UHGV virus genome: UHGV-0227772 | Strand: one strand, 5' to 3' | From: a virus | Length of the DNA: 11,339 nt | In this document: piece after piece, positions 478 through 1,440 of the stretch | Layout of the letters: every line of letters begins with the position of its first letter | Position numbering within the stretch: the stretch's first letter is position 1 | Notes under the pieces: model-generated | The model's input: the letters and a program-made list of their open reading frames with translations, nothing else | Database searches by the model: none | What the model was told of the DNA's origin: nothing | Translations under genes and position numbers: made by a program

Positions 478-1440
478 TCACCCCCTGAATCCAGGCGGTA
501 TTTCAGTGTCCGGTTCAGAAATGTGATTCACGCAACGATGCTCGGGCGAACGCCCCAGGCGGATAACCAGTTCATCCCATTTTTCCCGGAGTTTTGCCGG
601 ACTCATGATGTTTTTTACCCAGAACGAATCCCGCTGGACACGCCCAAACATTTCACAAATCTGCCGGTGACTACGTCCATCCAGCATCCGCATTGTGCGC
701 ACGTCATTGGCCCATGCTGTCCAGTTGGGTTCTTTCGGTCTCGTGATCTCGCCATCATCGCTGGCCGCCTGCTCGTAAAGACTCACGATTCGTCCCCAGA
801 TCCACTGTGCGCACACCAAATCTTCCTGACTTCCCCACTGGCGTTTTTTCGCACTGAACACAACCGCGTCAGGGTGTCGGGTTAAAAAATCCTGTTCAGC
901 CGTCTGCGGGTCCGGTTGCGAAGCGTCCGGACAAGAAGATCTTTTCTCTGACGGATCAGGTTTTAATACTGACGGATCGGGGTCAATCATCGCCCCCCTA
1001 ATCGGCAGTTTTTTATCAACAGTTGATCCATCAAAATTTGACGGGTCAACCGTTGAGGGGTCAATATTTGACGGGTCAACTGTTAACGGGTCATTTTTTG
1101 CCGGGCTAATTTTTCTTTTCGGTTTATATGCCTCACGCGCCGCAGTTGCAGCTGCTTCGAGTTTTTCCACATTAAGCCGATAGATATTGCTTACATTACG
1201 CCCACCGACCTTACGCTCTTCCTTCGTCAGCCAGCCCTCTTTCGCCAGTTCTGCAATAGCAGATTTAACGGTGGATTCACTTCTGGCACCGATCTGACGC
1301 CGGATAGTTTCAATGGCAGGCCATGACACGCCCTCGTCATTGCTGTAGTCTGCTAGACGGGCCATCACTGCCACCCGGGATAAGATCATGCCGGTGAAGG
1401 CGCATCCTTCCCAGACAAGACCATGAAGCTTGCTGCTCAT
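478..1440 (-). CDS. Phage replication initiator (lambda O-like role): N-terminal winged-HTH, central DP(S/L)T(V/I)D repeat linker, C-terminal domain possibly DnaT-like
   Basis: ORF track 478..1455 (325 aa). I prefer the internal ATG at 1438-1440 (MSSKLHGLVWEGC...), which has a GGGGG Shine-Dalgarno 5 nt upstream; the track start at 1455 is GTG. Position immediately upstream of the DnaC-like gene fits an O/P-type pair. The DnaT-like assignment is from recollection and unverified. Confidence 0.7.
   Translation of the reverse strand: MSSKLHGLVWEGCAFTGMILSRVAVMARLADYSNDEGVSWPAIETIRRQIGARSESTVKSAIAELAKEGWLTKEERKVGGRNVSNIYRLNVEKLEAAATAAREAYKPKRKISPAKNDPLTVDPSNIDPSTVDPSNFDGSTVDKKLPIRGAMIDPDPSVLKPDPSEKRSSCPDASQPDPQTAEQDFLTRHPDAVVFSAKKRQWGSQEDLVCAQWIWGRIVSLYEQAASDDGEITRPKEPNWTAWANDVRTMRMLDGRSHRQICEMFGRVQRDSFWVKNIMSPAKLREKWDELVIRLGRSPEHRCVNHISEPDTEIPPGFRG
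950..1130. repeat. Candidate origin of replication inside the initiator gene: iteron array plus AT-rich tract
   Basis: Four tandem 15-bp repeats at 1036-1095 (atttgacgggtcaac / cgttgaggggtcaat / atttgacgggtcaac / tgttaacgggtcatt, core GGGTCA), degenerate copies at about 950-987 (gacggatca, gacggatcggggtcaat), then an AT-rich run at 1095-1130 (tcattttttgccgggctaatttttcttttcggtttatatg). Same layout as the lambda origin inside gene O. Confidence 0.55.

Follow-up and report, generated by a model that had tools for sequence, protein, structure and literature searches.

The principle that a replication origin can lie inside the gene for its own initiator has been textbook knowledge since lambda, and the initiator genes of lambda, phi80, P22 and phage L each contain iterons, which provides a precedent for the element described here. 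The lambda origin occupies the middle of gene O, in the part encoding an interdomain linker, and is built of tandem dyad-symmetric sites; the helicase-loader gene lies directly next to it, the origin is transcribed from an early rightward-type operon, and the number of iterons is variable and adds residues to the protein, as in the six-iteron variants of the Stx phages P27 and 933W. For the phi80 origin, in gene 15 (GenBank JX871397), annotation gives gp15 four binding sites. Gene 18 of P22 and gene 18 of phage L encode distantly related lambdoid initiators, each with its own type of intragenic repeat; in phage L, six imprecise 11-base-pair (bp) repeats in the coding region were inferred from sequence only (PMC8022706). 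The features listed for lambda recur in the DNA analyzed here, an 11,339-nucleotide (nt) stretch of the virus genome UHGV-0227772 (hereafter the window), in which a replication initiator of 320 amino acids (aa) is encoded on the minus strand at 478-1440. We consider it likely that the segment at approximately 905-1105, in the part of this gene that encodes a disordered linker, is the replication origin of a lambdoid prophage; the 15-bp repeats it contains are very probably the initiator's own binding sites, because what is conserved in them across many bacterial genera is the DNA and not the protein. This reading is well supported by comparative evidence, and the arrangement is an expected one: an origin of the known lambda-style kind in a previously uncharacterised initiator family.

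TRF and a repeat finder place a 15-bp tandem array at 1016-1105, with five good units and one degenerate unit (TRF scores of 72 at period 15 and 89-101 at period 30). Read on the plus strand, the units are, in order, TCAACAGTTGATCCA, TCAAAATTTGACGGG, TCAACCGTTGAGGGG, TCAATATTTGACGGG, TCAACTGTTAACGGG and TCATTTTTTGCCGGG. Each of the five tandem iterons (1016-1090, unstranded) consists of an 11-bp dyad, TCAAnnnTTGA, and a 4-bp G/C spacer, and the sixth, degenerate unit TCATTTTTTGCCGGG (1091-1105, unstranded) is in register with them. The exact palindrome TCAANNNTTGA is present in four units, with one mismatch in the fifth; one of the five iterons reads TCAACTGTTAA instead of TCAAnnnTTGA. Units with a central ACNGT alternate with units with a central AWWTT, giving a super-period of 30 bp. 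Outside the array, TCAANNNTTGA has one exact copy in the 11.3-kb window and five copies with one mismatch, about the number expected by chance on a rough estimate, and no operator-like copies are indicated. A first-pass annotation of this DNA had described four tandem repeats with a GGGTCA core at 1036-1095. GGGTCA does occur four times (1043, 1058, 1073 and 1088) and the repeat is real, but a GGGTCA core is what this array shows when its register is shifted, and the array is longer, beginning at 1016. In the gene, the array spans nt 336-425 (aa 112-141), within the disordered linker and between the DNA-binding and C-terminal domains; the minus-strand open reading frame renders it as DPLTV DPSNI DPSTV DPSNF DGSTV, with GAC CCG TCA AAT ATT as an example of a coding-strand unit. 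The geometry is not that of lambda, whose sites are 18-19 bp long with starts 20-24 bp apart, as opposed to contiguous 15-bp units with an 11-bp core, and the repeats of P22 and phage L likewise differ from those of the window in sequence and length.

When the 30 array residues were recoded with the window's own codon usage in 20,000 draws, third-position identity at a lag of 15 was 0.31 ± 0.09 among the resampled sequences compared with 0.72 observed, a value reached by none of the draws. Because a recent duplication could yield the same result, the comparative data are decisive. One could envision the nucleotide repeat as a by-product of a slippage-prone disordered linker, arising through recent tandem duplication and having no function as DNA. 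The linker is predicted to be disordered, and the array evidently expands and contracts, in that the 901 relatives recovered by protein search have lengths stepping by five residues and the number of units among homologues varies from 1 to 8. However, distant genera retain the nucleotide pattern despite changes in the peptide. We compared eighty loci, one genome per species, and five more obtained through exact-protein look-ups; an array with a 15-bp period was present at approximately nt 300-400 of the gene in 68 of the 70 full-length homologous genes, from many Enterobacterales genera, including Escherichia, Edwardsiella, Erwinia, Morganella, Providencia, Yersinia and Rahnella, and one of the two exceptions (L004) shows units by eye. 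The first-pass annotation had reckoned with homologues that keep the protein linker and lose the nucleotide repeat, which would make the repeat a mere coding constraint; the opposite was observed, as homologues keep the repeat while the peptide changes from DP to EG, from S to P, L or A, and from I to V or N.

The manner in which the units vary is also telling. The initiators fall into two types by their N-terminal domain, designated H (MSSKLHGLVWE..., which includes that of the window) and T (MS[TV]KL..YVWD...). A matrix of 39 in-phase 15-mers from 9 H-type genes gives the consensus GAS SSS YYA AMK RTT, in which the only positions reaching 2.0 bits are 9 (100% A) and 15 (100% T), both of them third codon positions, while first and second positions vary: codons 1 and 2 encode DP or EG (GACCCC or GAGGGG), codon 3 encodes S, P, L or A, and codon 5 encodes I, V, N, S, T or F. 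Serine is encoded by TCA in 20 of 23 instances within H-type arrays as compared to 52 of 229 in the remainder of these genes (p = 1e-9), and codons ending in T are used for 33 of 37 Val, Ile and Phe residues within these arrays as compared to 126 of 350 elsewhere (p = 2e-10). The two serines of the T-type unit (consensus GAC NCN TCA AAA TCT) use position-specific codons, TCA for one and TCT for the other. Slippage accounts neither for third codon positions being the best conserved of the unit nor for this position-specific choice, and the non-repeated stretch that follows the iterons is equally fixed at synonymous sites. We thus regard an origin by slippage alone as highly improbable, the cross-genus comparison having largely refuted it.

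The constraint on codons extends over the whole linker. Relative codon entropy, scored at columns with conserved amino acids, is 0.81 in the N-domain and 0.19 in the linker among the 62 genes of the T type (p = 1e-11), and 0.73 and 0.15, respectively, among the 15 genes of the H type (p = 2e-8). Codon choice is nearly fixed throughout the predicted disordered linker (window ~910-1105), with many codons 100% fixed over 62 genes and, in window coordinates, 100% fixation from ~996 down to ~910, and free in the folded N-domain; the conserved NVEKL motif located just upstream, which serves as an internal control, draws freely on all synonymous codons. In the AlphaFold2 model, per-residue confidence (pLDDT) is 74-90 in the folded domains and 33-43 in the linker (aa 110-179, window ~904-1113), which is thus predicted to be disordered. 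As predicted disorder and codon fixation coincide, the stretch least important as protein is the one most conserved as DNA, and selection at the nucleotide level acts on both the repeats and the post-iteron module in many genera. That the linker DNA is nearly identical across genera might instead result from repeated recombination at the joint between the N- and C-domain modules rather than from purifying selection, given that the same N-domain types are joined to several C-domains and tails and that the conserved stretch lies exactly at the junction. For this, a single 100-200-bp segment would have to have swept repeatedly through genera in which the synonymous sites of the flanking N-domain are saturated, and the type-specific cores, the dyad symmetry and the constant 15-bp phase would still be unexplained. 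We find recombination very unlikely as a substitute for selection; the two readings are nevertheless compatible, since a conserved origin would itself promote such exchanges.

If the repeats are initiator binding sites, their sequence should follow the DNA-binding domain, and this is what the comparison suggests. The H-type core is TCAAnnnTTGA and the T-type core TCAAAATCTGA; all H-type sub-clusters carry the former and all T-type sub-clusters carry TCAAAATCTGAC, and TCARAATTTGA is found in a third, divergent subtype that is H-like (L088 and Klebsiella phage Kp4866-6). The separate proximal site, described below, switches with the N-domain type too. Such a pairing is as expected of cognate initiator/iteron pairs, and the dyad symmetry would be expected of a dimeric winged-helix binder; Foldseek matches of the N-domain are to dimeric winged-helix proteins of the MarR/PadR/ArsR kind, generic and weak (E at least 5e-3). 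The T-type units, although equally well conserved, are only partly symmetric, and taken singly they are not palindromes. Edwardsiella-type arrays have spacers that alternate between CCCC and GGGG, which lengthens the dyads to 19 bp (CCCCYCAACNGTTGRGGGG) and loosely recalls the lambda iteron CCCTCAAAACGAGGG.

Reading in gene direction, members of both types all have in common, on the 3' side of the array, a short A-run, a type-specific site, and then GATCCGTCAGTAAAWTCAA...GATCCRTCAGATAAAAAACCTTCTTGTC, with two boxes of common sequence 18, 21 or 24 bp apart; the window's copy of this arrangement spans 933-998. Directly 3' of the array is a short A-tract spacer (999-1015, unstranded; GATAAAAAACTGCCGAT on the coding strand), and most homologues likewise have an AAAAA run after the array. 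Next comes the proximal iteron (979-998, unstranded), which is a half-site here (GGGGGGCGATGATTGACCCC on the coding strand): it reads GGGGGCGATGATTGACCCC in this allele, compared with the 19-bp palindrome GGGGTCAATGGTTGACCCC of the H-type consensus and TCAGAATCTGG / CCGTCAGAATCTGGCGGG in T-type genes. The post-iteron module proper (933-978, unstranded), moderately AT-rich and conserved in both N-domain types with codons 100% fixed, comprises direct GATCCGTCAG boxes at 948-957 and 969-978, 21 bp apart and flanking GTATTAAAAC, followed by AAAAGATCT, which contains a GATC at 938. The boxes, family-wide written GATCCGTCA, lie on the lambda-like side of the array. The first-pass annotation had taken this sequence for degenerate upstream copies of the repeat; the copies are there (CTGACGGATC at 948-957 and 969-978, GGGGTCAAT at 979-987), but they belong to this family-wide conserved module. 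Two further candidate elements were rejected. A DnaA box, TTTTCCACA at 1163-1171, is one match where 1.4 are expected, and its codons are free in homologues. Clustering of GATC, with four sites in 938-1028, is not an enrichment, the whole window having 38 as compared to 43 expected; that two of the four sites are conserved across the family is the sole point of note.

The location of an unwinding or helicase-entry region is less clear-cut. The 40-mer of lowest stability in the initiator gene is found directly distal to the last iteron in both lambda and phi80, with a duplex free energy (dG) of -43.0 and -46.4 kcal/mol, respectively, and in lambda this tract, which follows the iterons, is 80% AT; there is none like it here. 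The first-pass annotation had pointed to an AT-rich segment at 1092-1130, and such a tract exists (1092-1131, T-rich on the plus strand, encoding KPKRKISPAKN), but it is weak, at 65% AT over 40 bp and a dG of -49.6 kcal/mol (z ~2 within the gene), it is without counterpart in the larger T-type branch (AT content 0.49 there), and it lies 5' of the iterons in gene direction, on the promoter-proximal side as opposed to the distal side used by lambda and phi80. The most AT-rich 40-mer of the gene is 999-1038, comprising the A-tract and the last units (70% AT, dG -47.7 kcal/mol), and a second modest minimum lies distal to the array at 933-972 (-48.0 kcal/mol). The family's most consistent AT peak is the post-iteron module (mean of 0.68 in the T type, 0.63 in the window). 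We favour the module at 933-978 as the best candidate for the unwinding or helicase-entry region, the weak tract at 1092-1131 being less likely. At the end of the nucleotide-constrained stretch, which ends near 910, there is an imperfect inverted repeat (unstranded; arms 903-915 and 927-939, TCTGCGGGTCCGG / CCGGACAAGAAGA, 11 nt apart and 77% complementary), roughly in the position of the palindrome to the right of lambda's AT-rich region.

The protein itself consists of an N-terminal winged-helix domain (aa 1-105), the linker (aa 110-179), a helical C-terminal domain (aa 180-297) and a 20-aa tail. Its sole Pfam domain above threshold is HTH_36 (E 2e-6), with DnaD_N scoring 17.3 bits, under the cut-off of 27. 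PHROG profiles for a 'DnaD-like helicase loader' match aa 196-300 (E 1e-26), and phrog_391, 'replication initiation O-like', matches over the full length (E 3.3e-114, residues 1-320 against profile positions 1-298 of 298). The N-terminus has no Pfam match to the lambda O family (Phage_rep_O-type N-domain), nor does the N-domain align to phi80 gp15. The C-domain, in contrast, is 37% identical to phi80 gp15 over 124 aa (E 8e-27), making it a homologue of the O/gp15 C-domain. phi80 further has CAGTATTAAAA and AAAAGATCTTC just right of its iterons, in the same relative position as in the window's module, and AAAAGAT is common to lambda, phi80 and the module in that position. phi80 differs in its TTCCCGAAAACGGGAA-type sites with a 21-bp period, in an N-domain unrelated by sequence and in a lambda-P-like loader; lambda's loader is P itself, whereas the loader here is DnaC/IstB-like. 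We therefore rejected phi80 gene 15 (considered because one hit was named 'Replication protein 15') as a direct homologue, as its C-domain alone is related and its iterons are not. What stands of the layout of the lambda origin, which the first-pass annotation had assigned to this locus, is thus the presence of intragenic repeats as DNA elements between two domains, and not the side of the AT-rich tract, the N-domain family or the iteron geometry.

The same protein family (phrog_391) is found in SfII, SfIV, mEp460-like phages and Klebsiella prophage-derived phages. SfIV, a sequenced, temperate, plaque-forming phage, has a T-type array and the same post-iteron module. The N-domains in phage records are at most 71% identical to that of the window, no phage record carries the window's TCAAnnnTTGA allele, and none of the phage records inspected for this family has an origin annotation.

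From these elements one could envision initiation as follows. Derepression would lead to minus-strand transcription of an operon of cro, cII-like, initiator and DnaC-like genes. The N-terminal winged-helix domain of the initiator, probably as dimers, would bind the TCAAnnnTTGA cores every 15 bp at 1016-1090, with weaker sites at 1091-1105 and 979-998. The resulting nucleoprotein array would destabilise an adjacent segment of low stability, most likely the GATC-containing module at 933-978 on the C-domain side, and the C-terminal domain and tail would then bring in the helicase with its loader, namely the phage DnaC-like protein and host DnaB.

Several observations weigh against reading this segment as an origin. 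The proximal site is degenerate in this allele, in which the iteron closest to the conserved module amounts to no more than a half-site. The first-pass statement that the origin is intact is not supported. No strong AT-rich unwinding element was found in the gene, the best 40-mers having a dG of -47 to -49 kcal/mol compared with -43 for lambda and -46 for phi80. A spacing of 15 bp corresponds to 1.4 helical turns, so that neighbouring dimers would sit on different faces of the helix, unlike in lambda. The link between core and N-domain is a correlation that appears to stem from one deep split and one subtype, and thus from few independent events. In the searchable literature, an incomplete library, we found no binding or replication experiment on this initiator family and no papers on its iterons or origin, so that novelty is not proven; searches for HTH_36 with iterons, for SfIV with iterons and for a Rac ydaU/ydaV origin gave nothing relevant, and papers on the 'Eru' modules of Stx phages mention HTH_36 and YdaT modules but nothing on iterons or an origin. 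Finally, as single strands the arrays of three divergent members (window 1010-1110, L007 2805-2905 and L002 2850-2985) fold far better than shuffled sequences (z = -6.6, -6.9 and -5.8; no shuffle was as good).

This strong hairpin potential could suggest that the DNA is selected for a role other than that of an origin, be it a hairpin in mRNA or single-stranded DNA (through translational pausing, RNA stability or a cruciform) or sites for autoregulation or for the exclusion of related phages; ectopic lambda origin fragments are known to inhibit related phages (PMC3349717, PMC4488673). However, any array of tandem dyads will automatically have hairpin potential. The arms are invariant in their primary sequence and not only in their pairing, and this sequence is specific to the type of DNA-binding domain, with no compensatory changes seen, and the conservation of the T-type units does not depend on individual palindromes. 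In the window, moreover, the spacers are all G-rich on one strand and not self-complementary, which interrupts long stems. Within the replication module we found no second repeat array and no other candidate for an origin. A non-origin role is thus unlikely in our estimation, and we retain the origin as the preferred explanation for the array.

A more specific proposal is that lambdoid origins of the HTH_36 type are built unlike that of lambda, with head-to-tail 15-bp iterons forming a face-alternating array and with a specificity-independent module (GATCCGTCA boxes 18-24 bp apart plus AAAAGATC) serving for unwinding or helicase entry, possibly under Dam/SeqA control. The codons of the GATCCGTCA/AAAAGATC module are all fixed across genera. 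We offer this proposal tentatively, as a possibility that is more doubtful than not.

The C-terminal 21 residues of the initiator (aa 300-320, window 478-543, minus strand) read EHRCVNHISEPDTEIPPGFRG and resemble the very C-terminal end of E. coli DnaT, also known as primosomal protein I (PDB 2ru8, 6aep and 9zbt; E 0.014-0.044). This tail was the only part matched in a sequence search of solved structures, which returned no domain-level homologue, and it is probably the reason why homologues are labelled 'primosomal protein'. Across approximately 75 loci the type of tail tracks the next gene. Where the tail ends in W...(V/T)L (e.g., GWEDVL or AWENTL), a homologue of lambda P and phi80 gp14 is next in 8 of 8 genes, and in some 45 genes whose tail ends in GFR(G/S/T) the next gene is neither lambda-P-like nor DnaC-like. 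The tail may be a DnaT-mimicking peptide that recruits host DnaB-DnaC.

The replication module is widespread: it occurs nearly full-length in over 550 complete genomes of E. coli, ST131 strains and ATCC 25922 among them, and its relatives are found throughout Enterobacterales as well as in some Stx and Shigella serotype-converting phages. Knowledge of the origin and of its two or three types of specificity provides a handle for predicting which prophages still replicate, helps to predict incompatibility or cross-activation of the replication modules of co-resident prophages, and guides the construction of ori-plasmids from these elements. The locus is also a clean natural case in which the function of the DNA dictates the coding sequence and the peptide is a tolerant, disordered linker.

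For bases 1-2700 of the window, matches covering at least 80% of that length are found in 554 complete E. coli genomes, with ATCC 25922 and ST131 strains among the top matches listed, all at approximately 97% identity. The window corresponds to the early region of an E. coli prophage of the lambdoid kind. On the minus strand the gene order is cro-like, cII-like, initiator and DnaC/IstB-like ATPase. The cro-like gene (1885-2187; YdaS_toxin/HTH_3) and the cII-like gene (1463-1888; YdaT, phrog_163), both assigned from Pfam and PHROG, lie upstream in the same operon, and a promoter-like site (2244-2215, minus strand) precedes the cro-like gene; a scan of 400-2700 for sigma-70 promoters and terminators gave only background levels. 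The putative helicase-loader gene (1-471, minus strand; Pfam IstB_IS21, E 4.5e-10) starts 7 bp past the initiator stop codon and is cut by the window edge, so that only its 5' part is present; E. coli genomes label it 'ATP-binding protein'. In ATCC 25922 the same module sits between integrase/exonuclease genes and a run of nin-like genes.

Some loci of the comparison have departed from this organization. A close allele in Escherichia marmotae (L084, nt 1501-2881) has only two tandem units and no DnaC-like gene, a DUF977 gene lying directly next, which shows that array units and the loader gene have been lost inside one lineage. In two E. coli genomes, ECDA1023 and ECGI0523 (L076 and L079, from nt 2501 of the locus onward), a T-type N-terminus of approximately 79 aa is in frame with an unrelated 455-aa open reading frame, which looks like a deletion fusion in a decayed prophage.

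Elsewhere in the window, a toxin-antitoxin pair of the RelB/ParE type (2622-3147, plus strand; Pfam ParE_toxin, E 5e-16), labelled relB and RelE/ParE in ATCC 25922, adjoins the immunity region. An 829-aa 'exonuclease' (4441-6930, plus strand) has an Exonuc_VIII (RecE-like) segment and, at its C-terminus, an Rv2179c-like 3'-5' exoribonuclease domain (E 3.5e-67); a 21-bp tandem repeat lies in its gene at 5982-6071. The segment at 8425-11339, past the integrase (7230-8348), carries a DUF2335 gene and a YadA-anchor gene. The related prophage of ATCC 25922 abuts potC, and its insertion site or cargo therefore differs from that of the window.

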